A DNA stretch of 30,421 nt, taken from assembly GCA_002392765.1 (NCBI GenBank), contig DGHT01000015.1:16531-46951 (forward strand). The letters run 5' to 3'. Below the pieces are notes generated by a model that saw nothing but the letters and a program-made list of their open reading frames with translations, ran no database searches and was not told the DNA's origin. The first letter of the stretch is position 1. Each line of letters starts with the position of its first letter. A program made the position numbers and the translations under genes. Source of the stretch: Verrucomicrobia bacterium UBA3841 (GTDB taxonomy: Bacteria; Verrucomicrobiota; Kiritimatiellia; RFP12; UBA1067). Shown here piece after piece: positions 16,888 to 29,702 of the stretch.

Positions 16888-17781
16888 ATGAACTACAGAG
16901 AATTCATACACCCGGAGGACGAGGCGGCATTGCGCAATCTTGAGGCCGTTCCTGGTTTCGATACTGTCGCGCGCTTCATCCTGGAACATTTCACGGAAGA
17001 CATGATGCATGGTCTCTATATGGCGCAGAATGTACGCCTGTCGCCGTCGCAACTTCCGGAAATATTCAATCTGTTGCCGCCGATATGCGGAAAATTCGAA
17101 ATTGAATTGCCGGAATTTTACCTCACGATGGATCCTAGACCCAACGCCTGGACGATTGGCGACAAGCGCAAGTTCATCGTATTGACGAGCGGACTTCTTG
17201 ACCACATCGCCGACAAGGATGAATTGCAGTCCATAATCGCGCATGAATGCGGACACATTGTATGCCGGCACGTGCTGTACAACACCATTGCAATGCTGCT
17301 GGTGAAATTTGGCGAGAGCCTGGGCTTTGGCCGGATTGTCATCGCACCTATTCTCCTGGCCATAAAATATTGGCAGCGGCGCAGCGAGCTTTCCGCAGAC
17401 AGGGCGAGCGCGGTGTACACCGGCGGTCACGAAGTTCCGTGCCGTGCCCTGTTGAGGATATGCGGCGGACCTGACAACTTGACGAAAAACATCAACCTTC
17501 CGGAATATGCCGAACAGGCAAAGGCGTACGATGCATTGGTTGCAAAGAGCAAGTGGAACAAACTTCTTCAAAACATGGCGATAATGGATGCAGACCATCC
17601 TTTTGCCGCTGTTCGCGTACGAGAATTGTTGTCCTGGGCGGGTAGCGAACAGTTTGCGAAACTAAAGCAGGCGATGTCTGCGGCGGAAGTCTTGCCAATG
17701 TGTCGGAAGTGCGGACGGCGCATTGCTGCCGATGCGAAATTCTGCAGGTACTGCGGCAATAATTTGAAAGGAGAGAAGTGA
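16888..17781 (+). CDS. M48-family zinc metallopeptidase with C-terminal zinc ribbon
   Basis: HECGH at 17242-17256 is preceded by NAWT..FIVLTSGLL and followed by ELSADR (third zinc ligand region), as in the M48/HtpX-like family. The C-terminus is CRKCGRRIAADAKFCRYCG (CxxC-x10-CxxC). Confidence 0.75.
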   Translation: MNYREFIHPEDEAALRNLEAVPGFDTVARFILEHFTEDMMHGLYMAQNVRLSPSQLPEIFNLLPPICGKFEIELPEFYLTMDPRPNAWTIGDKRKFIVLTSGLLDHIADKDELQSIIAHECGHIVCRHVLYNTIAMLLVKFGESLGFGRIVIAPILLAIKYWQRRSELSADRASAVYTGGHEVPCRALLRICGGPDNLTKNINLPEYAEQAKAYDALVAKSKWNKLLQNMAIMDADHPFAAVRVRELLSWAGSEQFAKLKQAMSAAEVLPMCRKCGRRIAADAKFCRYCGNNLKGEK

Positions 17782-18020
17782 TGGGTATTGTGGAGAAACT
17801 GGACGAACTTGTCCAGAAGTCGGCGTCGTTCCGGAAAATAATGGAGGACGGCGTGGTTGAAGACAGCGAAGTTGAAGAGCAGGCAAAGCGGGTTGAGACG
17901 CTGCTTGCGGAGCTGGAGCGGAGTCTTTCGCCCGGTGATTTCGAGCGGGTCGCTGAGTTTATGGCAGAACTTTCGGTGCTGCAGGTGATCCTGCGCTACA
18001 ATCAGATTGGAGGACGGTGA
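17781..18020 (+). CDS. Small acidic, predicted helical protein
   Basis: 79-aa ORF whose ATG overlaps the upstream TGA (TGATG). No motif recognised. Support comes from operon packing only. Confidence 0.4.
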   Translation: MGIVEKLDELVQKSASFRKIMEDGVVEDSEVEEQAKRVETLLAELERSLSPGDFERVAEFMAELSVLQVILRYNQIGGR

Positions 18021-18021
18021 C

Positions 18022-18522
18022 ATGGCTTTCGCTTCGCAAATGAAATTCAACGTTTCGCCGAGCTGCATTCCGCACATGGCAAAGGCATTGGAGAATGCGC
18101 TCAGGGAAGAGGGATATGATACGAAGTGCGACACATTGTTGAACGGCGACGTTGTCGTTTCGCTGACAAAAGGAGGAATGTTCAAGGCTGTTGTCGGAAT
18201 GAAAACCGCGCTCAAAGTGGAGCTTCGCGCCGACTGCGGAAGCGTCCTTGCCAAGACGGGCGTCGGCATCTGGGGCCATCAGATAGTGCCAACCGTAATC
18301 ATGCTCCTCTGGTTCTGGCCTGTACTCATTACGCAGATATGGGGTCTTGTGCAGCAAAGCCGTCTTGACGCGCACGTGATGGATATCCTGTCCAGGGCGG
18401 TGTCCGGCGGGATGGACGCAATAGACGTTCCATCAGAGGACGTTTCCTCTGCCCGCTTTTGTTCCGAGTGCGGCAAGCCTGTCCACGGCAATTTCTGCTC
18501 CAACTGCGGCGCGAAGGTGTAA
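18022..18522 (+). CDS. Single-pass membrane protein with C-terminal zinc ribbon
   Basis: ATG at 18022, 8 nt after GGAGG (18009-18013). One hydrophobic helix (IVPTVIMLLWFWPVLITQIWGLV). The C-terminus is CSECGKPVHGNFCSNCG. Confidence 0.55.
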   Translation: MAFASQMKFNVSPSCIPHMAKALENALREEGYDTKCDTLLNGDVVVSLTKGGMFKAVVGMKTALKVELRADCGSVLAKTGVGIWGHQIVPTVIMLLWFWPVLITQIWGLVQQSRLDAHVMDILSRAVSGGMDAIDVPSEDVSSARFCSECGKPVHGNFCSNCGAKV

Positions 18523-18532
18523 GGAGGGGTTG

Positions 18533-20800
18533 ATGAACGGAATGGTGTTTGCGTTCAAGACGGCCGTGTACCTTGCGTTCGGGGCTTTGACGACCGCTGC
18601 AATGCTGCTTGTTATGGTGCGGGCGGCTCGGAATAAGTATGCGATGATATTGATTGGCGTATTTCTCTTCATCGCAGGGTTTGTTACATATTTCTCTCCG
18701 GTTGAGTCTTGCGGCAAAGCAGGCGGCTCGCACGGGATTCCCGGCAGTGCGAATGACTGCGCCCGTCCTGTGTCTGCAAATACGAATGAATGTTTGCGCG
18801 CAAACGCATGTATGGCGGATTCGACGCAAAACACTGCGGACGACATCTCCGCAGGCGGATGCGTTTTCATTAAAAACGGTGCAAAATCACTGTCGTCGGT
18901 GAACAGGACTCTCTCGGCTTTTTATCCGTCAAGAGGGGAGTACGACGACACGCCTCCACCAGGCTGGGGCGGGCTGAAATACTGGCTGTTCCATCTCGCC
19001 GCGATTCTTTATATCTTGACACTTGCGGTTTCCTACTTCGGTATTGAGCTGATCAACGCGGCGTCGCTGTGGATGCGCAAACAGGCGAAAAAATGGCGAC
19101 TCGGCGCATTCGTGCGGCAATCGGAATTGAATGTGTTCTGGGATGCGGGGCAGGAATCGGAAGCATTGGCCGGACAGATGCCGTCGAAAAGCGTCGTTTT
19201 CGCAATCGCAGCCGGCGGACGGTCGTGGCGTAAACTTCAGGACGACGATGCGATATGCAGACTTGTTCGCAAGGGTGTGTTGTGGATTTCTTCCGATTCC
19301 AAAACCAATCGCAGACTGCTGACAATCGCAAGACGCCATTTCTTCATCGGTCCGGACTGCCATGAAAACGTTGTGAAGGCGCAGAAATATGTTCAGTTTT
19401 TGTATGACGAAAACATTCGGCATAAGGTCGATGTGTATGTTCGCGTGTGGTCGGATGCCGATGATGACGCCGTCTACGCATGGGCGGACAAATGGAACGG
19501 CAGGTTTTCGAAAGAAGGATTCCTGACGCAGATAAACGTTCTGCGCGAAGAGTCCATCGTCTCCAGGAGATTCCTTGTAGACCATCCAATGCTGGATTGT
19601 CCCGGAGTGAGAGTTTCCGATTGCCATACGGCTTCTGTCGCAGGCGAATTCAAGTTGCTTGTTGTCGGCTTTGGCGTTCAGGGAGAGCGGCTTATGGGCG
19701 ACATGATCTGCGATGCGCAATTCCCGGACGGGAAAGGCGGCGCGATTCCGGTTTCCGTCGATGTGGTTGACAGGGACGATGCGTCGTTTGGATGGTGGAA
19801 GGCGAACTGCAAAGAGGCGTGTGCGCGGTATGGAATCCATTTCGAGAACTGTGCCGCCGAAAGCGACCGCTTTTGGAGGTTTATTGAAAGCCGTTGTGTG
19901 TACAACCGGATTGTGATCAGCACTCATGACGACATCTTGAATCTCCGGTTGGCGAACGACATTGCCAATTACTATGCTAAACGGTATAGGATGGATTATG
20001 CGGTACTGCGCAATACAATCTTCGCGCGCGTTCGCAGACCTTCGCTGTCCAAGGTGCTTTGCGGCGGCATGGCGGACAGATATCAGCTGTTCGGCGATGT
20101 ACTGGACACGTATTCTCCGAAATGGCTGCTGAACGACTCGTGGGACGATGGAGCAAAATTCATCAACGGTGTCTGGAGCGCCGTGTACGATGAAGATTTC
20201 AGGAAGCTTCCCGACGGGGCGGACGTGATCAGATGGTACCTCGACAATATGGATCGCGGCGAGAAATACTGGGCGGCAAGGCCAATGCTCGACAAGGAAT
20301 CTTCCCGTGCGTCGTTCTTGCACATGAGAAACATTTTGCGTCTGATGGGATATGAGTGCAGGCGTGACATGCCAACGGATGAGAATGCAGGGATAAAACA
20401 GCTGGAGATACCGGAAAACCAGAAGGAGGAGTTGAAATGCGCGGCCGGGGACGCAAAGCGCCGGGAGAAGCTTGCCGAGTCGGAACATTTGCGATGGATG
20501 GCCTTCCATTTTGTCCGGGGCTGGGAGAAGTGGAGCCCGACCGAGGACGAGCTTGAGAAGCTCTCCAACGGCGGCAAGAACAGAGTCGAGCCTAACAGCA
20601 TGAAGAGTCGTGCTCGCATACACGCGAACCTTGAGGATTTTGCCAGGCTGGACGAGGTTGACGAGAAGTTCAACATGATTAACAGGAAGAATGGCAGGGA
20701 GTCTGTTAATTCGAAGGACAAGGACATAAACATCATATATGGCATCGAAGCCATTTACGCGACCGGCTTTCGCGTGTTCAAAAAGGCGTGTGACACGTGA
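18533..20800 (+). CDS. Membrane protein with Rossmann-like (TrkA-N/RCK-like) region and C-terminal RyR-like domain
   Basis: ATG 5 nt after GGAGG (18523-18527). About three N-terminal hydrophobic helices. VVGFGVQG glycine-rich motif (GFGVQG at 19667-19684). The C-terminus EHLRWMAFHFVRGWEKW...IHANLEDFARLDEVDEKF...DKD resembles the RyR-domain pattern of the next gene. Confidence 0.55.
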   Translation: MNGMVFAFKTAVYLAFGALTTAAMLLVMVRAARNKYAMILIGVFLFIAGFVTYFSPVESCGKAGGSHGIPGSANDCARPVSANTNECLRANACMADSTQNTADDISAGGCVFIKNGAKSLSSVNRTLSAFYPSRGEYDDTPPPGWGGLKYWLFHLAAILYILTLAVSYFGIELINAASLWMRKQAKKWRLGAFVRQSELNVFWDAGQESEALAGQMPSKSVVFAIAAGGRSWRKLQDDDAICRLVRKGVLWISSDSKTNRRLLTIARRHFFIGPDCHENVVKAQKYVQFLYDENIRHKVDVYVRVWSDADDDAVYAWADKWNGRFSKEGFLTQINVLREESIVSRRFLVDHPMLDCPGVRVSDCHTASVAGEFKLLVVGFGVQGERLMGDMICDAQFPDGKGGAIPVSVDVVDRDDASFGWWKANCKEACARYGIHFENCAAESDRFWRFIESRCVYNRIVISTHDDILNLRLANDIANYYAKRYRMDYAVLRNTIFARVRRPSLSKVLCGGMADRYQLFGDVLDTYSPKWLLNDSWDDGAKFINGVWSAVYDEDFRKLPDGADVIRWYLDNMDRGEKYWAARPMLDKESSRASFLHMRNILRLMGYECRRDMPTDENAGIKQLEIPENQKEELKCAAGDAKRREKLAESEHLRWMAFHFVRGWEKWSPTEDELEKLSNGGKNRVEPNSMKSRARIHANLEDFARLDEVDEKFNMINRKNGRESVNSKDKDINIIYGIEAIYATGFRVFKKACDT

Positions 20801-21084
20801 TGAACGATGGCTATATCCCCCGTCCTCTCGACACATCGGACATATCCCTGCCCGAATCGCTCGTTGCGCTAATCGAGGCGTTGGCGGAGAATGTGCATGA
20901 CACATGGGCCAAAGGGCGAATGGACGGGGGCTGGACATACGGTCCGGTCCGCGACGACGCGAAGAAACAGCACCCCGGCCTAGTCCCGTACGCCGATCTC
21001 CCCGAATCCGAAAAGGCATACGACCGCGCCACGGCAATTTCGACGCTGAAGTTCATCTGCAAGAAGGGGTATTCTATCAAATGA
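20800..21084 (+). CDS. Stand-alone RyR-domain protein
   Basis: 94 aa. LAENVHDTWAKGRMDGGWTYGPVRDDAKKQHPGLVPYADLPESEKAYDRAT matches my memory of the RyR (ryanodine receptor repeat) domain consensus. TGATG overlap upstream and ATGA overlap downstream. Confidence 0.7.
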   Translation: MNDGYIPRPLDTSDISLPESLVALIEALAENVHDTWAKGRMDGGWTYGPVRDDAKKQHPGLVPYADLPESEKAYDRATAISTLKFICKKGYSIK

Positions 21085-22415
21085 CAGCTAATGAAGAACA
21101 TAGATGCCTGACGGAGTTCAAGGAACATCATTGGGACATGCTGCTTGATTACATCGGGCAGGGGCGTGTAGTGCCTGTATTAGGTCCGGAACTTTTGGTC
21201 GCAAATGAGGCGGGGCGAAGTGTTCCGTTCTATCAGGAGGTCTCTAGACGACTTGCACATCACTTCGACATGCCTGAAATTGAATCTGAGACGGTTAATG
21301 ATTTCATGTCCCGTTTTTTGAAGGGGAACAATACGGTAAAGATGGCTCGAACCGGCTTAATTAAGGTGTTGAAGGAACTCGAAGATCAACCGCAACCGTC
21401 TCTTCGGAAACTGGCATCGATAAATGCCTTCAAACTCTACCTGACGACAACGCCGGATAATCTGCTTGCAAAGGCATTGACCGCTTGCGGGACAGATCCT
21501 GATGTGTACTTCTTTAGTACCAATTACAAGCGCCGGAGCGACTTGCCGGACAAAAAACTGCTAGGTCGCCAACGTTACATTTATCACCTCTATGGGAAAG
21601 CTGCGCCATGTTTTGAGTATGCCATTTCAGAGGACGATCGCCTCTTGTTTTCGTGCGAATGGATGGATTCGCAGGTTAAGCCGAGGAATCTGCTGTCTTA
21701 TTTGGCGGACAAGTATCTATTGATTCTCGGATGCGGGTATGAAAATTGGCAAGCGCGCTTTTTCCTGTTTGGACTTAAGGGGGCGGAGTTGTTCTCCAAC
21801 ATTTGGGATGCAAGCAGCCTGTTGGCGGATTCGCACACCCGAAATGATGCCCAGCTTGACCGATTCCTCTCAAGGTGCAGAGGGAATATCTATTACGAAG
21901 GCGGGGCGATCAAGTTCGTGGACGAACTTTGCAAACGATTGGAGAATACTCCTGCCGTACCGTCAGAGAGGGAGGGTGATACGTTTGAGAAGGGCAGCAT
22001 CTTTATCAGCTATGCCAGCGAGGACAAAGAAGCCGCGCTCAAGATCAAGCGGCGCTTGGAGTCGTTTAGTCTTCCTGTTTGGCTTGACAAGTTTAGATTG
22101 GAAAGCGGTTCTGACTACGATGCGCGCATAGAGAACAACATAAGGAACAGCGCGCTCTTTATCCCAATCCTTTCTCAAACGACTGCGCAGACGGCTGAAC
22201 CACGCTACTTCCGCAAGGAATGGAATATTGCCGTAGACCAGTCGCTTAGGAGCTCCCCGAAAATTCCTTTTATTCACCCCATCGCACTTGATGGCGTCGA
22301 ACCTTGCGACAACATTCCCGGTGCGATAAATAAGGTTCATTGGATACACGCGCCAGGAGGCGAACTGAATGAATGCGACATTGACCGGCTTATTGATCTG
22401 ATCGCACAACTGTAG
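21081..22415 (+). CDS. SIR2-like (SIR2_2-type) domain fused to a C-terminal TIR domain
   Basis: The N-terminal half has, in SIR2_2 order, VVPVLGPELL, YLTTTPDNLL, IYHLYGK and LLILGCGYENWQARFF. The C-terminal part (from 21993) is TIR-like: IFISYASEDKE...LPVWLDKFRLESGSDY...ALFIPILSQ...YFRKEW. The listed ORF start at 20904 is an out-of-frame extension into the RyR gene. Confidence 0.65.
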   Translation: MTANEEHRCLTEFKEHHWDMLLDYIGQGRVVPVLGPELLVANEAGRSVPFYQEVSRRLAHHFDMPEIESETVNDFMSRFLKGNNTVKMARTGLIKVLKELEDQPQPSLRKLASINAFKLYLTTTPDNLLAKALTACGTDPDVYFFSTNYKRRSDLPDKKLLGRQRYIYHLYGKAAPCFEYAISEDDRLLFSCEWMDSQVKPRNLLSYLADKYLLILGCGYENWQARFFLFGLKGAELFSNIWDASSLLADSHTRNDAQLDRFLSRCRGNIYYEGGAIKFVDELCKRLENTPAVPSEREGDTFEKGSIFISYASEDKEAALKIKRRLESFSLPVWLDKFRLESGSDYDARIENNIRNSALFIPILSQTTAQTAEPRYFRKEWNIAVDQSLRSSPKIPFIHPIALDGVEPCDNIPGAINKVHWIHAPGGELNECDIDRLIDLIAQL

Positions 22416-22426
22416 GAGGCGTGTAT

Positions 22427-25400
22427 ATGTCTAATAATGTTTTCAAGTCCGCGTGGCCAGGTCTGAATTCCTACGAAGAGGAAGATCAATCCCGTTTCTT
22501 CGGAAGGGACAGGGAGATTGATCTTTTGAAGGATGTCATCGGCACTGAATCGTTATGTACGATTTACGGTGTTTCCGGCGTCGGGAAGACATCCCTGTTG
22601 CAGGCTGGTGTTTTCCCAGAGTTGCGGGCGCGTTGTTTCCTGCCAGTGTATTTGCGTCTGGGACATGACAAAATTGACAGGCCGTATGCAGCCCAAATCA
22701 TTGAAGGATGCCTCGCGGCGGCGCGGAAGTCAAGACTTGAGGTGGTAGAGACATGTCAGGCGCTGGGGGCGTCCGAACATGAGACGCTATGGGAATGGTT
22801 TCACAGGCATGAATTTTTGAACGCCGTCAAGAAAGTCGTGCGCCCGGTTCTTGTCATCGACCAGTTCGAGGAAGTGTTCACACAGGGGAGTGACAAGGCT
22901 GAAAAAGAGTCTTGGTTTGATGAATTGACCGACCTGTGTTCCAACAGCGTTCCGGAATCTGTTGCAGATTTCATGTCTAATTCTGAAAATGATTTGGCTT
23001 TCCAAACAGAGAACCAGACCTGGCGCACGGTAATCTGTTTGAGAGAAGATTTTCTCTCGCGTCTAGAAGAGCGAACTGTTGAGTACCCGATATTCAAGCG
23101 GAACCGCATATCAATAGGGCCGTTGAGTGCCGAAAACGCAATAGAGGCGGTACTGAAAGGCGGAGATGGAATTGTCGATCTGACAGTCGCCGAATGTATC
23201 GTAAGGTATGTAGGAGGTTCGGCCGGGAAAATTGAGACCCCATTGCTTTCGTTGTTTTGTTCGCGTCTTGACATCCTTCGGCAAAGGGCTGGGTTGCCGA
23301 AGATCTCGCAGGAACTCGTCGAAGGAAACAAGGGTAAGATACTGAACAGTTTCTACGATGAATCGATGGGGCTTGTTTCGGCGTCATCCCGCGACTATCT
23401 TGAGGCGAATCTTCTGAACGAGGGGGGCTACCGGACGCCGGTACAACTCGATGAGGCGGAACGGAACGGTGTCCGGCCCGAAGAATGGAAAACACTTGAA
23501 AGAGTTCGCCTGTTACATGTGATTTCACGTGACAATGTACAGTGGTTGGAATTTAGTCATGACACCTTGGCGCCGGTTGCGAAAAGCGCACTTGAAAGGC
23601 GAAAAGCGGACAGGGAACGGCATGTGATGCAGGAGAAGTTGGCTCGTTCACGTCGTCGCACCAGAAGGCTCTTCTATGCATTTGTCGGCTTTGTCGGCTT
23701 TATATGCATCGCATCGTTTGCAACGTGGTTTCTGTTCTACAAGGAACATGTTGCGTACTATAGGGAATTTACCAAGAAATGGGGATGTCCAGTTGGGGTC
23801 GGTGCGCCGCTTACGATGGAACAGGTGCGCCACAGGGAATGCAGTTTTAGAATGAAGCGAAAGGGTCTGTATTCGCGGCGCGGCTTCCATTTTGAACCCA
23901 CCTATGCATATCGCGTCGAGGCTGTCAACGGTCGTCTGCAACCGACGACCGCACATGGGATGGTGACGTATTTGTGGGGAGGGGAAAATACAGCAAAACA
24001 GATGCAGAAAGAATTGGATAAGCGGAATTCAAATTATAAAGGGGACGCAAAAAGCGTTGGTAAAGACAACGCAAATGACAACCGCAAAAGTGGCTATTTG
24101 ACGTCAACGAAACTGGGAACAGTTTGCACATGGGAATTCATGTGTGACAAAGATGGTTTGCCGGAACGCGAAATCGGCTATGACGAAAAGGGCGAAATAG
24201 TATGGATGATGCCGTATGCCGTGGAAGCCACTGCAAATAGCGGGAAGCCAGAGTCTGCGATTGTGCATTTTACAATGAAAGACAGTTATTCGGTGAGACA
24301 GCGGCTGGACGATGCAGAATATGTAAGAATAACATACGACGATAAAAGCGGTTATGAAACAAAATACGAGTTCCTCGATAGGTATGGTAATGAAACCATA
24401 GGACCGGATGGTGTGTATGCGCGATCTCGAGAGTATTATTCTTCGGGGCGACTTAAGAAGCACGCCTCTTTGGATGTAGCAGGGAATTACATCATTGACC
24501 TGGCTGGGAATACAGGCCTGCGGTATGAGTATTCAGATGACAATCGGGAAATGCGCGTCACATCATTTGGTACAAACGAAGAGGCAAAGGCTTTAAACGA
24601 TGGATGGGTAAAATGTGTGCAGCGATATGACGAATGGGGAAATCTTGCGGAGCAAAGTTTCTACGATGCGACAAATCGGCTGGCTCTTTCCGATGGATGG
24701 CCGAGTGCCATCGTTGAAAGGGATTCCTATGGTCTCAAACAATCAGTGACATTGAGGGGGCAGATGTCCAATGGAGAAGATTTGGAACAATATGTTCTTT
24801 TTGATGTCGAGGGCAATGCGACAAACGTAGTGTGGCGCAATGCAAATGACAAAAGACCTAGCTGTAAGCCGGGAACTGAAGTACACATGATCTGCCGAGA
24901 GTATGCAGGCAAGGACAGGGCTTCGGTCGAGTGGTATTTAGATGTGAATAATGAGGCGATCACAAATGAATATGGCGTTGCCAGGGATGTGAGTATATAT
25001 GACACATCAACAGGCATGCTCGACACGAATAACCTTTACGCCCTGCCAGGACAAGGTGGAGCGCTAGGATACACCAATGTCCATCATTCATGTACGAGTT
25101 TTGATGGGTTCGGAAACCAGACCGGAGAAAGGTATTTTGATGCGGATGGGAATCCTACTGCGGATAACAACGGTGTATTTGAGTGTAAGTACTTGTGGCA
25201 GGGTGGCTATAAGGTTAGAGATGACTACCTTGCGCCGAATGGCAAAGGCGGGGTTGGGGGCGGCACAAACGTGCATCACATGGTGAAAATCTACAAGACA
25301 GTCAATGGTGCGAATCTTTGCGTGTGCGAGAAGTATTATGGTTGCGACGAAAGCCCGGTCGCGAACAATTACGGCGTAGCGAGAGTGGAATATACGTATG

Positions 25401-26440
25401 ACACAGCCGGCGTTGAAAGACGCCGAGATATGTATTCGGCGGATGCCGCCGGAGGAATCTGGGGGTGCACAAATCTATGCCATGTACTTGAGACGCGTGA
25501 TGAAAGGGGAAACACCGAGACGCAGCAGTGTTTTGACAGGGATGGGCGATATGTCGCATCTGACGGCACTGGGATGGTTGTTGGTCGTATGTCTTACTTT
25601 CCCGGTTCAGGCGATAATCCGCCCGTCATATCCATGCTTGATGGTTTCTCAATGCCGACGGTTGGCTTTGGCAATGACGGAAGAAGATGCAGGGTGACGC
25701 GATTCTACCGTAAAGACGGAGGAGAAAGAAGGACTGAAGAAGTAGATTTCAGCGGTAATCGCCATATTGAGGAAAAGAATACTGACGGTAATGTCACCTC
25801 CGAGGAGTTTGCGGGTGCGAAAGATGGTGGAATTGCCGATTTCAGTCTGCACGGAGTGGCTAAAATCAATCGGTGTTATGGTATAAAACCTGCCACTTTG
25901 TTTGAGCGTATATTCGGTGGGGGAGTCAAGCATAAGGACATTTGTGTGCGCGAAATGTATCTTGATTCATCGGGGAATCCGGTCGTCAATCGTTTTGGTA
26001 TCGCGGGATGGCGCAAGGATACGGATTACTCATCCGGCAAAATTGGGAATACCTTGTACTTTGATGTTTCAAGTAATGAAATGAAAGTTGCCGTAGGCAG
26101 GATTGTGACACCCAGCAGGGTTAGACCGCTCGGTATGGCTGACAAGAATGGAATCAAGGTTGGCGATATAATCTGTCACTACAACGATTATGATATATTG
26201 CGTTCCTCCTTGGATGTCATGGAACAAGTCGTTTCAACCGGGATGAACGATAATAAACGGATTGTCATCGGCAGAAGAAATAAGAATGGCCAATACGACA
26301 TAATCCCATATATATTGCCTCCCGGTGTACTTAATTTTAATCTGGTTGATGTGCCGATTAGCGAGGAGTATTATAAAGAACTTGAACACGACTATAAGGC
26401 GTATCAGGCGTATTGCGAAAAAGAAAGCGGGATGAAGTAA
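22427..26440 (+). CDS. STAND-class P-loop NTPase with TM helix, YD/RHS-like repeat region and PDZ-like C-terminus
   Basis: ATG 7 nt after AGGAGG (22414-22419). The lead-in WPGLNSYEEEDQSRFFGRDRE is followed by Walker A GVSGVGKTS (22568-22594) and Walker B VLVIDQFEEVF. RRRTRR precedes the hydrophobic helix LFYAFVGFVGFICIASFATWFLFY (23669-23740). About 24100-26070 carries repeated YD..GN / FD.DGNP.....GV motifs. The C-terminal part is GIKVGDII...GRRNKNGQYD...LVDV. Confidence 0.7.
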   Translation: MSNNVFKSAWPGLNSYEEEDQSRFFGRDREIDLLKDVIGTESLCTIYGVSGVGKTSLLQAGVFPELRARCFLPVYLRLGHDKIDRPYAAQIIEGCLAAARKSRLEVVETCQALGASEHETLWEWFHRHEFLNAVKKVVRPVLVIDQFEEVFTQGSDKAEKESWFDELTDLCSNSVPESVADFMSNSENDLAFQTENQTWRTVICLREDFLSRLEERTVEYPIFKRNRISIGPLSAENAIEAVLKGGDGIVDLTVAECIVRYVGGSAGKIETPLLSLFCSRLDILRQRAGLPKISQELVEGNKGKILNSFYDESMGLVSASSRDYLEANLLNEGGYRTPVQLDEAERNGVRPEEWKTLERVRLLHVISRDNVQWLEFSHDTLAPVAKSALERRKADRERHVMQEKLARSRRRTRRLFYAFVGFVGFICIASFATWFLFYKEHVAYYREFTKKWGCPVGVGAPLTMEQVRHRECSFRMKRKGLYSRRGFHFEPTYAYRVEAVNGRLQPTTAHGMVTYLWGGENTAKQMQKELDKRNSNYKGDAKSVGKDNANDNRKSGYLTSTKLGTVCTWEFMCDKDGLPEREIGYDEKGEIVWMMPYAVEATANSGKPESAIVHFTMKDSYSVRQRLDDAEYVRITYDDKSGYETKYEFLDRYGNETIGPDGVYARSREYYSSGRLKKHASLDVAGNYIIDLAGNTGLRYEYSDDNREMRVTSFGTNEEAKALNDGWVKCVQRYDEWGNLAEQSFYDATNRLALSDGWPSAIVERDSYGLKQSVTLRGQMSNGEDLEQYVLFDVEGNATNVVWRNANDKRPSCKPGTEVHMICREYAGKDRASVEWYLDVNNEAITNEYGVARDVSIYDTSTGMLDTNNLYALPGQGGALGYTNVHHSCTSFDGFGNQTGERYFDADGNPTADNNGVFECKYLWQGGYKVRDDYLAPNGKGGVGGGTNVHHMVKIYKTVNGANLCVCEKYYGCDESPVANNYGVARVEYTYDTAGVERRRDMYSADAAGGIWGCTNLCHVLETRDERGNTETQQCFDRDGRYVASDGTGMVVGRMSYFPGSGDNPPVISMLDGFSMPTVGFGNDGRRCRVTRFYRKDGGERRTEEVDFSGNRHIEEKNTDGNVTSEEFAGAKDGGIADFSLHGVAKINRCYGIKPATLFERIFGGGVKHKDICVREMYLDSSGNPVVNRFGIAGWRKDTDYSSGKIGNTLYFDVSSNEMKVAVGRIVTPSRVRPLGMADKNGIKVGDIICHYNDYDILRSSLDVMEQVVSTGMNDNKRIVIGRRNKNGQYDIIPYILPPGVLNFNLVDVPISEEYYKELEHDYKAYQAYCEKESGMK

Positions 26441-26508
26441 TGACATCTAAGCGAACGCTTACGGGTTTCCGCGGATTATATCCGGCATATTAGGTTGTTT
26501 TGCGACAG

Positions 26509-26542
26509 ATGCGGAGCATGCTCCGCATTATTATTGTGTTTT
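26509..26542 (+). terminator. Putative intrinsic terminator closing the 7-gene operon
   Basis: Perfect 20-bp palindrome atgcggagcatgctccgcat (26509-26528), immediately followed by tattattgtgtttt. Confidence 0.55.
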
Positions 26543-26565: not shown

Positions 26566-27060
26566 GTGCAAAATGAGGATTTGAACATGATAGATCGTCC
26601 TTATGGGCTTAAGTGGCTTTGGCAATGGAAAGACCATGAGCCGATAAAAGTCGTCACCGGCATACGACGGTGCGGCAAATCGACATTGCTTTCAATGTTT
26701 CAGGAGCAATTGCGCGAAGACGGCATCAACGCCGATCAGATTGTCGCAATCAACTTTGAGCATCCGGATTTCATGGAACTTGACAATTCCGCCGCCGTAT
26801 GGAAATACTTGAAGCCGAAAATTGCCCAGGGACGAAATGCATACGTTTTCCTTGATGAAATTCAGCGTGTAAGAGACTTTGAAAAGGTGGTTGACGGACT
26901 TTTGTGCTGCCTGGCGTTGATGTCCTGTTGCGCTTGATGCCGTGGTACGATACATCTTCGACAACATCGGGAATCTCACGAGCATGCGGAATATCGCGAC
27001 AGTCCTGAAGTCTGAAGGCGTTTCAATTGATGCTTCTTCTGTTGAGGACTATGTCTCCGC
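26566..27060 (+). pseudogene. Decayed AAA_14 / DUF4143-family ATPase gene
   Basis: The N-terminal fragment has Walker A GIRRCGKST and Walker B VFLDEIQ, then a premature stop at 26935-26937. A second fragment in another frame (from 26942) reads VRYIFDNIGNLTSMRNIATVLK..SVEDYVSAL, like the DUF4143 part. Intact family members are, from memory, roughly 400 aa. Confidence 0.6.
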
Positions 27061-27063
27061 CCT

Positions 27064-27112
27064 GTGCGGCACGGGCGGTCGGCGGCGAATGGCGTTGCGA
27101 TCGTGTATAGTC
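27064..27112 (+). pseudogene. 49-nt fragment of a histidine phosphatase gene 5' end
   Basis: Ungapped alignment to 29067-29115 matches at 42 of 49 nt, including 27 of the first 28. It translates to VRHGRSAANGVAIVYS against VRHGRSAANEDPTVYS in the intact gene. There is no start codon in frame. Confidence 0.7.
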
Positions 27113-27212
27113 TACGGTATTGGCGATGTAGTTTAAGAATTTTGTGAAATTTAAGTTGGAAATTGCAAGATAAATGTGGCGATAAAACTGTACCATCTAT
27201 TGGAGTTGCGAA

Positions 27213-29018
27213 ATGAACAAGTCACAACAATACGATATCTTCATTTCATACCGCCGCGAGGGCGGATATGACACGGCGCAGCTGCTGTACGACCGGTTGA
27301 CGCAGATGGGCTATCGCGTGTCGTTCGACCTGGAGACGCTGCGCGGCGGGAAGTTCAACACGCAGCTCTACCGGCGCATCGAGCAATGCTCCGACATGCT
27401 TGTCATCATGAGCAGGGATTCTCTTAACCTTCGCGAGAATCACGAGGACGACTGGTTCCGGCTGGAGATCGCCCACGCGCTGAAGCACAAGAAGAACATC
27501 GTCCCCGTGTTCCTGCGTGACTTCAAGTTCCCTCAGAAAGGGGAGTTGCCAGACGATATAGCCGACCTGGTGGACTATCAGGGCGTCACGGCGTCGCAGG
27601 AACATTTCGACAGTGTGCTGAATCGGATATGCAGGAACTTCAAGGCGAAGCCCCATCGGCGCAAATGGCCGGTAGTCGCCGCCATTGCCGCAGCTCTTCT
27701 TGTCGGCGCGGGGATTGGAGTCTGGTTGAAGGCAGACAAGATTTTCCCGTATCCTTTTACCAGAGAGGCAAGACAGGAGGTTGATGCATACTATGGAACT
27801 GTGTTGCGGATTGGGGCCGCCTACAATGAATTTCTGTCCGCAAAGATGGAACTTCTTGACAAGGTCAGTTTGAGTATAGAAGCTGAAGACAAGGCGCCAT
27901 ATCAAGCCGCCGTACCAGAGTTCTTGCATCGACGCGGAATGGCGAGAAAAAATCTCGACGCCGCTGCTGAGGCGTTGGAAAGAGTTGTCAAGGAGAACCC
28001 CGGATTGCGTGTGGATCGCGCATACATACCGAATTTCCTGGAGGGGGTACGACAGGAATTCGGCGATGCGGATGAGTGGGCTGCTCTTTTCAGCCTCCCG
28101 TGTGATCCTGATTACGTATGCTCAAAGGCAAACAGGATTAGGATTGTCATGCTCAATCGCAAGGAGATTGAGATATATGCCGACGTGTTTGCCTATGGCG
28201 TCATGTTCCTTTTCGACATGATTTCGCCGGAAGCGCTCGCTGACTTTAGGGAAGTCGCGGCAAAACAGTGGACGATGTTGAAGCGGTTCAGAGGTGAATG
28301 GCTGTCAGATCAAAAGCAGATTGAACAGAATGGCGAGGCTTCGCTGAACCAGCTTCAAGAAGTGGTCGAGGAGCGTGCGCAGATAATAGGAAATACGGCA
28401 CAGGCCCTGGAGCAGGCTAAGCGCAACACCAGGCAAATGAGAATGGACGCGGGAATGTCGCCGGAACAAGCCGAGAGAATCGGCAAGAAGGAGGAGGAGC
28501 TTGAGAATTTGAAGGCGCAGAGGAAAGAGACGCAAAAAGCGATAGCGGATGCACGAGAGCGGCTCCGCAAGAAGTTCGCGCCGAAGGATGATGACGACAT
28601 TGGAATACTCTGGGGCAAGGCGTTGCGGTTCATGTCAGTCAATATGCCGGAGGAGGCGAAGCGGTGTGCAGATGTTTTGCGTCGGCGCAATACGCCGGAT
28701 TTCCCGCCATCGGCGATAGACACCGCGGAGGCGATCATCCTGTCTAAAGGCGCGTTGCCGTTTGTGGGTGGTGTCTTGGTTTGTTCATACGAACCGCCGG
28801 CTACGTCTCATGCGATATTCAAAATCGGAGACGTCGTCACGGAAGTGAACGAGAAACCATGTCTGTACTTCGAGGATTACAGCAGCAAGGCCGGCAACAC
28901 CTACACGATATACCGTCGAAACGCGAAGGGCCAGTTTGACAAGCTGACGGCAACCATGCCTGAAGGCCAGCCGCGTGTGGCTCTGGTGGATTTGGCGGAG
29001 AAGGGCGACCGCAAGTAG
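27213..29018 (+). CDS. TIR domain - TM helix - coiled-coil region - PDZ-like C-terminal domain protein
   Basis: GGAG lies 7 nt upstream of the ATG. TIR start YDIFISYRREGGYD...VIMSRDSL...DDWFRLEIAHAL...IVPVFL. KAKPHRRK precedes the helix WPVVAAIAAALLVGAGIGVWL (27666-27728). A charged heptad-like stretch runs about 28300-28580. The C-terminus is IFKIGDVVTEVN...YRRNAKGQFD...LVDL. Confidence 0.75.
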   Translation: MNKSQQYDIFISYRREGGYDTAQLLYDRLTQMGYRVSFDLETLRGGKFNTQLYRRIEQCSDMLVIMSRDSLNLRENHEDDWFRLEIAHALKHKKNIVPVFLRDFKFPQKGELPDDIADLVDYQGVTASQEHFDSVLNRICRNFKAKPHRRKWPVVAAIAAALLVGAGIGVWLKADKIFPYPFTREARQEVDAYYGTVLRIGAAYNEFLSAKMELLDKVSLSIEAEDKAPYQAAVPEFLHRRGMARKNLDAAAEALERVVKENPGLRVDRAYIPNFLEGVRQEFGDADEWAALFSLPCDPDYVCSKANRIRIVMLNRKEIEIYADVFAYGVMFLFDMISPEALADFREVAAKQWTMLKRFRGEWLSDQKQIEQNGEASLNQLQEVVEERAQIIGNTAQALEQAKRNTRQMRMDAGMSPEQAERIGKKEEELENLKAQRKETQKAIADARERLRKKFAPKDDDDIGILWGKALRFMSVNMPEEAKRCADVLRRRNTPDFPPSAIDTAEAIILSKGALPFVGGVLVCSYEPPATSHAIFKIGDVVTEVNEKPCLYFEDYSSKAGNTYTIYRRNAKGQFDKLTATMPEGQPRVALVDLAEKGDRK

Positions 29019-29042: not shown

Positions 29043-29702
29043 ATGAAACCTAAGCGAATAATCCTAGTGCGGCACGGACGGTCGGCGGCGAATGAGGATC
29101 CGACCGTGTACAGTCGTGTGCCCGACTACAAGATCGAGCTTGTGGAGCAGGGGCTGGAAGAGGCTCGCCGGGCTGGAGAGCATATTCGCGATCTGATTGG
29201 ATCCGAATCCTACGGTGTGTATGTTTCGCCGTATCGCCGTACCTTGCAGACCAAGGAATGCATTGTTGAACGGATAGGTTTTGCGCCTGCATTTGATTAT
29301 CAGGAACCATACCTTCGCGAGCAGGAGATGGGCAATATGCCGGCAATCATCGATAATGAGTTGAACTGGGCGGCACGAAAGAAGTACGGGACGTTCTTCT
29401 ATCGATTCCCGGACGGCGAGTCGTGCGCGGACATCTATGACCGCATGTGCGGATTCCTCGACAATCTCCACCGGCAGTTTGGCAATCCGGACTATCCCCG
29501 GAACATCATAATCGTCACGCACAGCGTCGCCATGTGCTGCTTCCTCTTCCGCTGGTATCACTGGACGGTGGAGAAGTTCGACTCTCTGCCGCTCTTGCCA
29601 AACTGCCACATCGCCGTCATGACACGCGGAGATGACGGGGCGTTTGTGCTGACCGAGCCATATTCCATGAAACCGTATCTGTCAACTGACGACAACCAAT
29701 GA
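29043..29702 (+). CDS. Histidine phosphatase superfamily (phosphoglycerate mutase-like) protein
   Basis: The N-terminal RIILVRHGRSAAN carries the RHG catalytic motif. SPYRRTLQT and IIIVTHSVAM follow at the expected spacing. 219 aa. Confidence 0.75.
   Translation: MKPKRIILVRHGRSAANEDPTVYSRVPDYKIELVEQGLEEARRAGEHIRDLIGSESYGVYVSPYRRTLQTKECIVERIGFAPAFDYQEPYLREQEMGNMPAIIDNELNWAARKKYGTFFYRFPDGESCADIYDRMCGFLDNLHRQFGNPDYPRNIIIVTHSVAMCCFLFRWYHWTVEKFDSLPLLPNCHIAVMTRGDDGAFVLTEPYSMKPYLSTDDNQ

Follow-up and report, generated by a model that had tools for sequence, protein, structure and literature searches.

The window, the whole 30,421-nt stretch of DNA that was analysed, carries a gene for a 601-aa protein with a TIR domain and a predicted transmembrane (TM) helix, downstream of an operon of seven genes. 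The features of the locus are as follows:

16888..18522, +: operon genes 1-3, encoding an M48 peptidase with a Zn-ribbon, a 79-aa protein and a 166-aa TM/Zn-ribbon protein
18533..20800, +: 755-aa protein with three TM helices near its N-terminus, GxGxxG in the middle region and an RyR(R12)-like domain at the C-terminus
20800..21084, +: 94-aa stand-alone RyR (R12) protein (Pfam RyR on the gene call)
21081..22415, +: 444-aa protein ending in a TIR domain; the gene begins with a 4-nt overlap with the RyR gene
22427..26440, +: nSTAND1 NTPase with a TM helix, an external region of ~900 aa and a PDZ-like end (Pfam nSTAND1, E 2.8e-30; weak PDZ_2/PDZ_6)
26508..26539, +: terminator-like hairpin (26508-26529) with a T-rich tail, downstream of the nSTAND1 gene
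26566..27136, +: remnant of an AAA_14/DUF4143 ATPase gene that separates the TIR-TM gene from the operon
27202..27205, +: GGAG ribosome-binding site, 7 nt ahead of the ATG, read from the sequence
27213..29018, +: gene for the 601-aa TIR-TM-helical-PDZ protein (open reading frame with ATG start; AlphaFold2 (AF2) mean pLDDT 87)
27228..27638, +: TIR domain of apparent SARM1 type, residues 6-142 (Pfam TIR_2, PDB sequence matches, Foldseek)
27465..27467, +: codon of Glu85, the candidate catalytic residue, in DDWFRLE (invariance; alignment to the TIR-1/SARM1 Glu)
27639..27728, +: basic juxtamembrane stretch and predicted single TM helix (residues 152-172, nt 27666-27728)
27741..28739, +: predicted extracytoplasmic helical region, residues 177-509 (fast-evolving; AF2 pLDDT 91.6; without a solved-fold match)
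28740..29000, +: C-terminal HtrA/RseP-type PDZ, residues 510-596 (profile against the PDB; PDZ_6 in 19/26 members)

A TIR-TM gene and its surroundings

The open reading frame at 27213-29018 is a real gene, since the protein has 128 homologues at E<=1e-3 and identical copies of it are encoded on five further metagenome contigs. As a preliminary description of this DNA had stated, the frame possesses its own ribosome-binding site and an AT-rich upstream spacer, both read from the sequence. Being small and found solely in gut and rumen anaerobes, the family has been missed by screens that focus on E. coli and Bacillus, and a literature search returned no description of a TIR-TM-PDZ protein. No homologue was detected in 50,697 phage records or in IMG/VR, and a phage or viral origin was dropped.

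Transcription of the TIR-TM gene may be separate from that of the seven-gene operon, because the terminator-like hairpin and the AAA_14 pseudogene lie between them. A 123-aa fragment of the pseudogene matches AAA_14 at E 3e-18 and the remainder contains four stop codons; an intact 401-aa copy is present in a relative (L003). The earlier proposal of a separate single-gene unit may hold to that extent. Functionally it is not supported, since relatives in three phyla adjoin homologues of the 755-aa or RyR proteins. Within the operon, the 444-aa protein was matched by Pfam TIR_2 (E 5e-19) and weakly by SIR2_2, and the nSTAND1 protein (TM helix at residue 419) has the topology and end module of the TIR-TM protein. 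A whole external region common to these two proteins was considered and rejected: only the PDZ-like ends match, and weakly (E 0.002). For no gene of the locus did a PADLOC or NCBIfam model exceed its cutoff. A His_Phos_1 gene lies 24 nt downstream of the TIR-TM gene; the association is limited to the closest relatives, and the gene was treated as unrelated. In several genomes the flanks of the loci consist of housekeeping genes and are not obviously defence islands.

Architecture of the 601-aa protein

The N-terminal TIR proposed earlier is supported by two Pfam families above their curated cutoffs, which places the protein in the TIR superfamily: TIR_2 at residues 9-114 (E 7.8e-15; 55.9 bits, cutoff 28) and TIR (E 2.6e-6; 27.8 bits, cutoff 21.3). 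Sequence matches of the domain in the PDB were to SARM1/TIR-1 chains only (E 6.8e-22), and Foldseek superposed its model on SARM1/TIR-1 with TM-scores of 0.92-0.95 (rmsd 1.4 A, 31-33% identity). Judged by these matches and by the modelled fold, the head is of the SARM1 type. SARM1 and C. elegans TIR-1 are its nearest solved relatives (E 7e-22); it has the same Glu in the W..E context as they do, and its Box 1, BB-loop and EE-loop motifs are similar to theirs. This Glu, E85, had been singled out beforehand as the candidate catalytic residue; it is invariant in 60/60 homologues and is aligned with the catalytic Glu of C. elegans TIR-1/SARM1. It is the conserved Glu after W in the alphaC region that marks enzymatic NADase/cyclase TIRs. 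Unlike SARM1, the 601-aa protein has neither ARM nor SAM domains and carries its TIR at the N-terminus, joined to a TM helix and a putative external sensor. Control by NMN/NAD+ through an ARM domain, as in SARM1, cannot apply. Orthology to SARM1 was rejected, since the ARM-SAM-SAM-TIR architecture is absent and only the TIR is shared.

There are several TIR genes per locus, and the domain could be imagined as a scaffold that recruits the other TIR proteins through TIR-TIR contacts, in the way that TLRs recruit adaptors, without being an enzyme itself. The invariance of the catalytic Glu, the SARM1-like pocket motifs and the standing of the TIR as the most conserved part of the protein (mean pairwise identity 65%) make this extremely improbable.

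The single TM helix claimed at 27666-27728 after a basic stretch was recovered. Residues 154-172 form the sole hydrophobic 19-mer that is a candidate TM segment (Kyte-Doolittle 2.42), FKAKPHRRKW precedes it, and AF2 predicts a helix at residues 152-172. The runner-up (residues 507-525, 1.77) lies in the PDZ region and overlaps a beta strand of the model (521-526). In all 60 homologues examined the hydrophobicity and position of the helix are kept while its sequence varies. The 15 residues on its N-side hold 331 K/R and 16 D/E across these homologues, against 115 K/R and 101 D/E on the C-side; the N-side exceeds the C-side in 57/60, and the reverse was never seen. No N-terminal signal peptide was found in the 601-aa protein. 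One hydrophobic helix, a positive-inside bias and the lack of a signal peptide together describe a single-pass N-in/C-out protein. The TIR is predicted to be cytoplasmic and the C-terminal region external, both because of the charge bias and because the same C-terminal module follows a TM helix behind Hanks kinase and nSTAND1 heads, which depend on ATP and must be cytoplasmic. The topology anticipated in the preliminary description is supported.

Its comparison with Toll-like receptors holds as an analogy only. TLRs are type I (N-out/C-in) proteins with an N-terminal LRR ectodomain and a C-terminal TIR, and no LRR match was obtained in the 601-aa protein. In common with TLR/IL-1 receptors it would have a region outside the cell that senses ligands, a single TM helix and, in the cytosol, a TIR that gives the output by assembling. 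The polarity is reversed, the ectodomain is a helical bundle with a PDZ domain rather than LRR or Ig domains, and the TIR appears by sequence to belong to the SARM1-type enzyme class, whereas that of the receptors is a scaffold. No evidence was found for common descent of the TLR and TIR-TM architectures. Similar in layout are N-in single-pass receptors such as PASTA Ser/Thr kinases and the anti-sigma factors RseA/RsiW, which likewise join a cytoplasmic head, one TM helix and an external sensor. An HtrA/RseP-type PDZ outside is a further common point, the anti-sigma factors working with DegS/RseP PDZ sensing. They differ in that the output of the 601-aa protein would be a TIR enzyme and that its ectodomain belongs to neither the PASTA nor the anti-sigma type.

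In the AF2 model the ~430 aa after the TM helix consist of long helices at 184-509, among them 367-412 and 417-454, and then a small beta domain at 521-593. A Foldseek search of the PDB with an ectodomain-only model returned nothing significant (best E 0.98). The TM domains of ABC exporters, TorS/MCP sensor domains and PhoU were set aside as showing only generic, non-significant helical-bundle likeness. The membrane-proximal helical region has a mean pairwise identity of 26%, against 65% for the TIR, and this divergence looks sensor-like. The PDZ-like end that had been noticed earlier was confirmed with the family profile, which matches PDZ domains of periplasmic DegP/DegQ/Do and of an RseP homologue (E 2.5e-9 to 1e-5); these nearest relatives are all extracytoplasmic. 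Pfam PDZ_6 matches are weak and all under the gathering score, and the window sequence alone matches none. Among 1.84 billion representatives, the ectodomain family accounts for only 162 clusters at 50% identity. It is modular: other heads that precede the same ectodomain are a Hanks kinase (P0165, P0234), nSTAND1 (P0142) and one of unknown type (P0129, P0179), with a TM helix after each head.

RyR-domain proteins encoded beside TIR genes

Relatives of the TIR-TM gene are often accompanied by genes for RyR-domain proteins. Partners were counted within 10 kb as a ~650-770-aa protein ending in RyR (R12) (the 'big' protein), a ~95-aa RyR protein, or both. They were present at 26/40 full-length loci and at 44/84 loci overall, in Lentisphaeria, Bacillota and Bacteroidota, often at <=350 nt and on the same strand. 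Homologues of the 755-aa protein are the commonest neighbours of TIR-TM genes elsewhere, and in Enterocloster/Lachnospiraceae the TIR-TM gene and a partner stand alone among housekeeping genes. The remaining 14 full-length loci have no RyR or 'big' neighbour, some of them on short contigs. At some loci a different unannotated partner of 545-626 aa (family c6), without a Pfam match, takes the place of the RyR or 'big' protein. In the reverse direction, a metagenome scan based on an alignment of seven RyR sequences was used, and 80 loci were fetched by their RyR protein; a TIR of this clade was encoded at 22 of them, usually abutting the RyR gene, and a 'big' protein at 31. Both partner types are present in the operon upstream in the window (755 and 94 aa). 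There, the TIR-TM gene is 6.1 kb from the RyR gene, with the hairpin, the pseudogene and two other genes in between, and the immediate, translationally coupled neighbour of the RyR gene is the gene for the 444-aa TIR protein. Further TIR proteins are encoded in these neighbourhoods, namely TIR-FGE-sulfatase, TIR-TPR, TIR-Sel1 and SIR2-like-TIR proteins. A literature search yielded no description of host RyR-domain genes adjoining TIR genes.

Phage RyR-domain proteins have been reported to bind or cleave 2'/3'cADPR and to bind cADPR, and the fold is used by phages to defeat TIR/Thoeris signals; RyDEP (DyoEdafos gp78) is a 2'/3'cADPR glycosidase (PMC13232231; bioRxiv 10.64898/2026.06.04.730250). 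The 94-aa protein (PDB match at E 5e-68) is 34% identical to RyDEP and 47% identical to repeat 1 of mammalian RyR2. Its H33, W36, H58 and D75 are aligned with H75, W78, H100 and D117 of RyDEP, so that all four ligand or catalytic residues are kept. Of 17 aligned stand-alone RyR sequences (that of the window and 16 from 14 related loci), 15-17 keep these residues. For the 755-aa protein, the family profile (A4) matched an RyR1 chimera (E 2e-9) and B. thetaiotaomicron 3NRT (E 8e-5) in the PDB. Invariant residues in this family are E651, H652, R654, W655 and H697. Taken as PF02026 or a solved R12 domain together with an H..W/H/D pocket, RyR (R12) identity was found for both partners, the equivalent of the pocket Asp being unclear in the 755-aa protein. 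The central domain of the latter gave weak Rossmann-type hints only (NmrA, prephenate or saccharopine dehydrogenase, E 0.06-0.3). A fold is thus shared by phage RyDEP/RyR-Tad, the Repeat12 of animal ryanodine receptors, the 94-aa protein and the C-terminal end of the 755-aa protein. RyDEP and RyR-Tad are phage counter-defence proteins, whereas the 94-aa protein is host-encoded and shares an operon with TIR genes; it may be a binder or a glycosidase.

Possible roles in signalling

Thoeris systems combine ThsB TIR proteins, which make a signal, with ligand-gated effectors, that of type II being Macro-TM, and several TIR genes around one effector are an established trait. To our knowledge, RyR is not an established Thoeris sensor domain. 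The loci described here may resemble Thoeris in having a TIR with a candidate catalytic Glu beside a protein that joins TM helices to a small domain for ADPR-type ligands, in having multiple different TIR genes per locus, and in that phage RyR proteins counteract Thoeris signals. The RyR-ending protein is adjacent in many relatives and 6 kb off in the window. Known ThsB proteins are cytosolic, whereas the 601-aa protein is predicted to be membrane-anchored, and it falls below the curated ThsB/Thoeris models (41.5 bits for NCBIfam ThcB4, whose cutoff is 220; PADLOC ThsB, E 2e-7, over the TIR only). Keywords for the RyR (R12) domain are not found in the main text of a survey of 29 Thoeris types (bioRxiv 10.64898/2025.12.03.692087).

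The interpretation that we favour, with roughly even confidence for and against it, is that the 601-aa protein serves as the predicted transmembrane sensor-TIR in a signalling system akin to Thoeris, together with RyR-domain proteins. What has been observed is which domains are present, that the Glu is invariant, where the topology signals point and that other cytoplasmic heads carry the same ectodomain; the mechanism that these observations suggest is as follows. The cytoplasmic head would be an enzyme that cleaves or cyclises NAD+, and the helical bundle with its PDZ domain would be an envelope-side sensor or anchor. An event at the envelope would alter the oligomeric state of the protein; one possible cue is that damaged or foreign envelope proteins expose their C-terminal peptides, to which the PDZ domain would bind. 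The TIR domains would then assemble their active site, as SARM1 and other TIR enzymes do. Because of the conserved gene neighbourhood and the work on phage RyR-domain proteins, we infer that the product could be cADPR or a 2'/3' isomer, an ADPR-type signal which the RyR (R12) proteins of the locus would read or trim. The RyR-ending protein, with its Rossmann-like region and with or without TM helices, may be the receptor or effector, and the small RyR protein, which keeps the catalytic dyad of RyDEP, a buffer or off-switch. The TIR-TM protein would be one of several interchangeable TIR sensors feeding such a conflict system, together with the TIR-FGE-sulfatase, TIR-TPR, TIR-Sel1 and SIR2-like-TIR proteins, and would be specialised for extracytoplasmic cues. 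The TIR-TM gene and its RyR neighbours suggest that TIR immune signalling has a membrane-sensing branch not described before. The bacterial immune sensors known so far act mostly in the cytoplasm. If the reading is true, a TIR enzyme on an external sensor would amount to bacterial transmembrane innate-immune signalling that arose independently of TLRs. A host-side function would also be offered for the RyR fold, which has so far been characterised only in phage counter-defence.

Does the TIR make a signal, or is it the weapon itself? SARM1 is an NAD+ hydrolase/cyclase that mainly destroys NAD+, so by analogy the TIR might act as an effector and not produce a signal. The protein might then sense and kill by itself as an abortive-infection effector, with the envelope-side clustering suggested in the preliminary description leading to SARM1-like depletion of NAD+ and the RyR proteins serving the other TIR genes of the island or mopping up leaky product. 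Such a role is consistent with the catalytic core, with the gene's own ribosome-binding site and possibly separate transcript, with the 14/40 relatives in which no RyR or 'big' neighbour was detected and with the coupling of the RyR gene in the window to the other TIR gene. We judge it unlikely, given the RyR-ending protein encoded immediately adjacent and on the same strand in many distant relatives, the two-gene islands in Firmicutes, and the fact that a depleter of NAD+ has no need of an ADPR-binding partner.

It is also conceivable that an external cue, such as envelope stress or a signal from another cell, is converted into an NAD-derived second messenger outside immunity. The RyR proteins would be ordinary receptors, as the kinase- and nSTAND-headed paralogues signal by other routes. 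Ser/Thr kinases with the same ectodomain have a classic non-immune receptor layout, and the housekeeping flanks and the lack of homologues in the phage and viral collections fit as well. A non-immune role is nonetheless very unlikely: the neighbours are typical parts of conflict systems (nSTAND1, TIRs with sensor-type FGE-sulfatase, TPR and Sel1 domains, a SIR2-like region), the ectodomain diverges fast, and phages use the RyR fold against TIR signalling.

The sensor-TIR reading can be extended to animals. The animal pairing of SARM1, which produces cADPR, with the R12 repeats of the ryanodine receptor may have descended, or been borrowed piecemeal, from operons of this kind. There would then be an ancient bacterial axis from SARM1-type TIR through cyclic ADPR to RyR(R12), whose input can be a transmembrane receptor, the 601-aa protein, reporting extracytoplasmic events through TIR assembly. 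Host RyR proteins would be the original receptors or off-switches, copied later by phages as RyDEP and RyR-Tad. This wider proposal is speculative and, on balance, rather doubtful. The action of cADPR on RyR channels has long been debated in animal biology, and a SARM1-like TIR encoded side by side with ryanodine-receptor-type domains gives the link a testable origin.

Activation might proceed by regulated proteolysis instead of clustering. In response to an envelope cue, co-encoded proteases (the M48 peptidase, or PrsW in Bacteroidota) or housekeeping site-1/site-2 proteases would cleave the protein, and the TIR would be set free in a soluble form able to assemble by itself. The N-in single-pass layout is that of RseA/RsiW, the PDZ is of the DegP/RseP type found in envelope-stress proteolytic cascades, and PrsW and ECF sigma genes are present at loci in Bacteroidota. 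The M48 and Zn-ribbon proteins recur jointly at 10 loci (nine distinct) in three phyla, with the 79-aa protein detected at six. A precedent is the amoeba TIR NADase TirC, which becomes toxic once its TM tether is removed (PMC13142454). Most loci have neither M48 nor PrsW, however, the M48 protein of the window shows no convincing TM helix and no cleavage motif was identified, so that proteolytic release is decidedly unlikely. Such a step would be compatible with a sensor-TIR and does not exclude it.

Architecture and topology of the TIR-TM protein

The TIR-TM gene is clearly a real gene. Its product has 128 homologues, an identical copy is present on five other contigs, and the nearest homologue from a named genome (an uncultured rumen bacterium) shares 93% identity. 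Judged by the nearest named hits, the window probably comes from a PVC-group gut bacterium.

Features of the TIR-TM gene and its product
27202-27205, + strand: GGAG upstream of the gene, with an AT-rich spacer upstream
27213-29018, + strand: open reading frame, 601 aa
27465-27467, + strand: codon of Glu85 in DDWFRLE, candidate catalytic residue
Residues 9-114: TIR domain (Pfam TIR_2, E 7.8e-15, above cutoff)
Residues 1-142: TIR fold in the AlphaFold2 model
Residues 152-172: helix in the model
Residues 184-509: long helices in the model
Residues 521-593: small beta domain in the model

The AlphaFold2 model was built with the family alignment as input and has a mean pLDDT of 87. The C-terminal ~95 residues, used as a profile, match PDZ domains of periplasmic DegP, Do, DegQ and an RseP homologue (best E 2.5e-9), and weak Pfam PDZ_6 matches are found in 19 of 26 family members. 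The open reading frame, Pfam, alignment, model and PDZ-profile results therefore place every element of the preliminary description where it had been put: a gene with its own ribosome-binding site and AT-rich spacer, an N-terminal TIR, Glu85, a single helix, a large external region and a PDZ-like end. Comparison of the helical region with solved structures gave nothing significant (best E 0.98). Mean pairwise identity in the family is 65% in the TIR, which is much the best conserved part of the protein, 26% in the membrane-proximal helical region and 47% in the PDZ domain.

The sole candidate transmembrane (TM) helix spans residues 154-172 (Kyte-Doolittle 2.42) and is preceded by FKAKPHRRKW. 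The segment second in hydrophobicity (507-525, 1.77) is part of the PDZ region and overlaps a beta strand of the model (521-526). A 19-mer with a Kyte-Doolittle value of at least 1.76 occupies the same position in 60/60 homologues, and the helix sequence itself is freely variable. Within the 15 residues flanking the helix in these homologues, the TIR side holds 331 K/R and 16 D/E and the other side 115 K/R and 101 D/E; the N-terminal side is the more positive in 57 of the 60 sequences, and the opposite was never seen. No signal peptide was found in the protein.

The ectodomain has been found to be modular. A search with the ectodomain only against 1.84 billion cluster representatives retrieved 162 clusters, mostly TIR-TM proteins. 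In some clusters, the head in front of a TM helix and the same module is a Hanks Ser/Thr kinase (proteins P0165 and P0234), an nSTAND1 NTPase like that of the upstream gene in the window (P0142) or an unassigned stretch of 290 aa. Kinases, STAND ATPases and TIRs all require cytoplasmic nucleotides, and the shared C-terminal module must therefore lie on the far side of the membrane. The nearest relatives of the PDZ domain are all extracytoplasmic. Helix, flanking charge, absence of a signal peptide and interchangeable heads agree, bearing out the proposed cytoplasmic TIR and external C-terminal region. The protein very probably consists of a cytoplasmic SARM1-type TIR, one TM helix and, outside, divergent helices that end in a PDZ domain of HtrA type.

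Head swapping on a common ectodomain is modular-receptor logic. The label of Toll-like-receptor type holds only as an analogy: receptor-like working is common to both, but the TIR-TM protein has reversed polarity, no LRR and a TIR of enzymatic type. The same receptor logic could belong to an envelope signalling receptor with a non-immune role; an immune or conflict role is somewhat favoured.

The type of TIR

When the TIR-TM protein was searched against all PDB sequences, SARM1 and C. elegans TIR-1 were the only matches (E 6.8e-22 to 8e-16), and Glu85 was aligned with their catalytic Glu. This residue is invariant in the alignment of 60 homologues. In Foldseek, the top ranks were 35 SARM1/TIR-1 chains, with identities of about 27-34% across chains; isolated SARM1 TIR-domain entries gave TM-scores of 0.92-0.95 on the target and rmsd values of 1.4-1.6 A, and SPARTA, AbTir and plant TIRs ranked far below. 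On comparison by eye, the SARM1-group versions of Box 1, BB loop and EE loop (PMC7075850) are recognisably retained. Having no ARM or SAM domains, the protein does not count as a SARM1 orthologue. The nesting of the SARM1 TIR among bacterial TIRs was already known (PMC13142454). A TIR serving as a scaffold is the alternative here; the TIR is likely to be enzymatic.

Gene neighbourhood and proposed RyR-domain partners

Upstream of the TIR-TM gene lies a tightly packed operon of seven genes, spaced -4 to +11 nt apart.

Neighbours of the TIR-TM gene in the window
Within 16888-18522, + strand: gene 1, M48 peptidase (HtpX-like) with C-terminal Zn-ribbon
Within 16888-18522, + strand: gene 2, acidic 79-aa protein
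Within 16888-18522, + strand: gene 3, TM/Zn-ribbon protein
18533-20800, + strand: gene 4, 755-aa protein with three N-terminal TM helices
20800-21084, + strand: gene 5, 94-aa RyR-domain protein
21081-22415, + strand: gene 6, 444-aa protein with C-terminal TIR and weak SIR2_2 match
22427-26440, + strand: gene 7, 1337-aa nSTAND1-TM-...-PDZ-like protein
26508-26529: terminator-like hairpin after the operon
26566-27136, + strand: remnant of an AAA_14/DUF4143 ATPase gene, with a 123-aa fragment followed by frame breaks
29043-29702, + strand: His_Phos_1 histidine-phosphatase gene, starting 24 nt past the TIR-TM stop codon

The remaining window genes are housekeeping genes (Mla, IlvD, PheT, aminotransferase, GHMP kinase). 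Locus L003, a 94%-identical relative, has an undamaged AAA_14/DUF4143 gene of 401 aa in this position, and behind it stand two TIR-TM paralogues in tandem (601 and 645 aa). The link of the His_Phos_1 gene to the TIR-TM gene is limited to the closest relatives; in L003 and L007, a 41-codon remnant of it sits at another position of the island.

The hairpin and the decayed ATPase gene stand between the operon and the TIR-TM gene, and thus a transcript of its own is possible, as the preliminary description had proposed. Such a gene could encode a self-sufficient abortive-infection protein that depletes NAD+. However, a gene of the 755-aa family (the "big" protein) or an RyR gene lies within 10 kb in 26/40 full-length loci and in 44/84 loci overall, which counts against a separate single-gene unit. 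The observation is confirmed, and its interpretation is supported in part. These counts were made with HMMs of both neighbour families; of the 29 RyR genes, 19 lie within 2.5 kb of the TIR-TM gene. Clustering of neighbours in 44 full-length loci gave the 755-aa family (~650-770 aa) as the commonest, often directly downstream on the same strand, and the RyR protein of ~95-115 aa as the second. In Enterocloster and Lachnospiraceae, the TIR-TM and "big" genes form a two-gene island amid housekeeping genes.

Both partners carry RyR domains. In 18 aligned "big" proteins, E651, H652, R654, W655 and H697 of the C-terminal segment are invariant; as a profile, this segment matches RyR Repeat12 structures (E 2e-9) and a B. 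thetaiotaomicron "putative ryanodine receptor" (E 8e-5), and six family members pass Pfam RyR unaided. The middle of the family has an invariant GxGxxG-type glycine with weak Rossmann hints, and the N-terminus has 0-4 TM helices. The 94-aa RyR protein, whose gene overlaps the start of the TIR gene by 4 nt, is 60% identical to a B. thetaiotaomicron-derived RyR-like repeat, 47% to mammalian RyR2 repeat 1 (residues 862-947) and 34% to mycobacteriophage DyoEdafos gp78 (pairwise E 3e-16). Its H33, W36, H58 and D75 align with gp78 H75, W78, H100 and D117, and among 17 aligned stand-alone RyR sequences (the window's own and 16 from 14 related loci), 15-17 keep these pocket residues. Homologues of the phage RyR protein are nanomolar sponges (PMC13232231), and 3'cADPR, 2'cADPR and canonical cADPR are all ligands of a phage RyR-type sponge (preprint 10.64898/2026.06.04.730250). 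The small RyR-domain partners are shown to keep the pocket for cyclic ADPR isomers, and the neighbourhood with RyR-domain proteins is conserved. Homologues of the 94-aa protein also occur in 244 phage records.

In the reverse direction, 80 metagenome loci were retrieved via the RyR protein. A TIR of this clade is present in 22 of them, in most cases with its gene directly beside the RyR gene or overlapping it; the "big" protein is present in 31 and the TIR-TM ectodomain in one only. The constant core is therefore RyR and TIR, with TIR-TM-PDZ as one of several attached TIR variants. A functional link of the TIR-TM protein with the RyR proteins is slightly favoured.

In the proposed scheme, an external cue would alter the oligomeric state of the TIR-TM protein or trigger its cleavage. 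The TIRs would then assemble and act on NAD+, the TM-Rossmann-like-RyR ("big") protein would read the product, and the small RyR protein would trim or buffer it. For this Thoeris-like scheme with a membrane sensor, taken as a combined statement, the chances are about even. Activation by regulated proteolysis is a rival to a change of oligomeric state and is compatible with the main model. An ancestral bacterial axis from SARM1-TIR through cADPR to an RyR domain, with true transmembrane input, is rather doubtful. The TIR-TM protein is not a catalogued Thoeris component, and catalogued Thoeris models scored far under their cutoffs against it. The main text of a survey of 29 Thoeris types, by keyword, does not mention RyR, PDZ or M48. 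A literature search of incomplete coverage, giving absence of evidence only, returned no report of host RyR-domain genes beside TIR genes or of the TIR-TM-PDZ architecture. The finding is rated as a case of TIR-based signalling or abortive defence, one in which a sensor TIR spans the membrane and has proteins with RyR domains as partners.

Relatives and other neighbours

The gut and rumen MAGs with full-length homologues belong to Lentisphaeria, many Bacillota (Lachnospiraceae, Oscillospiraceae, Enterocloster, Ruminiclostridium) and Bacteroidota (Alistipes, Rikenellaceae, Lentimicrobiaceae). Genes for the M48 peptidase and the Zn-ribbon protein occur together at 10 loci in three phyla (Lentisphaeria, Bacillota, Bacteroidota), of which nine are distinct because L005 and L006 duplicate one place; the 79-aa gene was detected in six of the 10. 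L005 encodes a fusion of the M48 domain with a Ser/Thr kinase, and upstream of it lies an FHA-Trans_reg_C regulator. The same loci are crowded with further TIR proteins (TIR-FGE-sulfatase, TIR-TPR, TIR-WG-repeat).

The nSTAND1 protein is a second receptor-shaped protein of the window locus. Its TM helix (~residue 419) is followed by a region of ~900 aa without a Pfam match, in which YD..G-like motifs recur by eye, and its PDZ-like end weakly resembles that of the TIR-TM protein; P0142, a shorter relative, bears the TIR-TM protein's own end module. The 444-aa TIR protein and the nSTAND1 protein form an adjacent pair again in Bacteroidota loci L041, L071, L075 and L082.

Outside the window, P0088, P0090 and P0091 carry this TIR at 63-68% identity together with a Macro domain (PF01661); by eye, P0088 and P0090 have no evident TM helix and a second TIR-like segment after the Macro domain. 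P0094 is a TIR-TM protein with two FGE-sulfatase domains, and P0102 is TIR-TM-Sel1. An alternative conserved neighbour of 545-626 aa, without a Pfam match, is found in L008, L030, L031, L066 and L073 (e.g., L066:7615-9330). It has a soluble alpha/beta-looking N-terminal domain and 2-3 C-terminal TM helices, sometimes with small RyR genes alongside. A gene for a PrsW-family intramembrane protease precedes the TIR-TM gene within a distance of one or two genes in Bacteroidota loci L039, L051, L059, L065 and L084. L036 and L065 have genes for ECF-type sigma factors close by, as do the Bacillota loci L033, L043 and L067.
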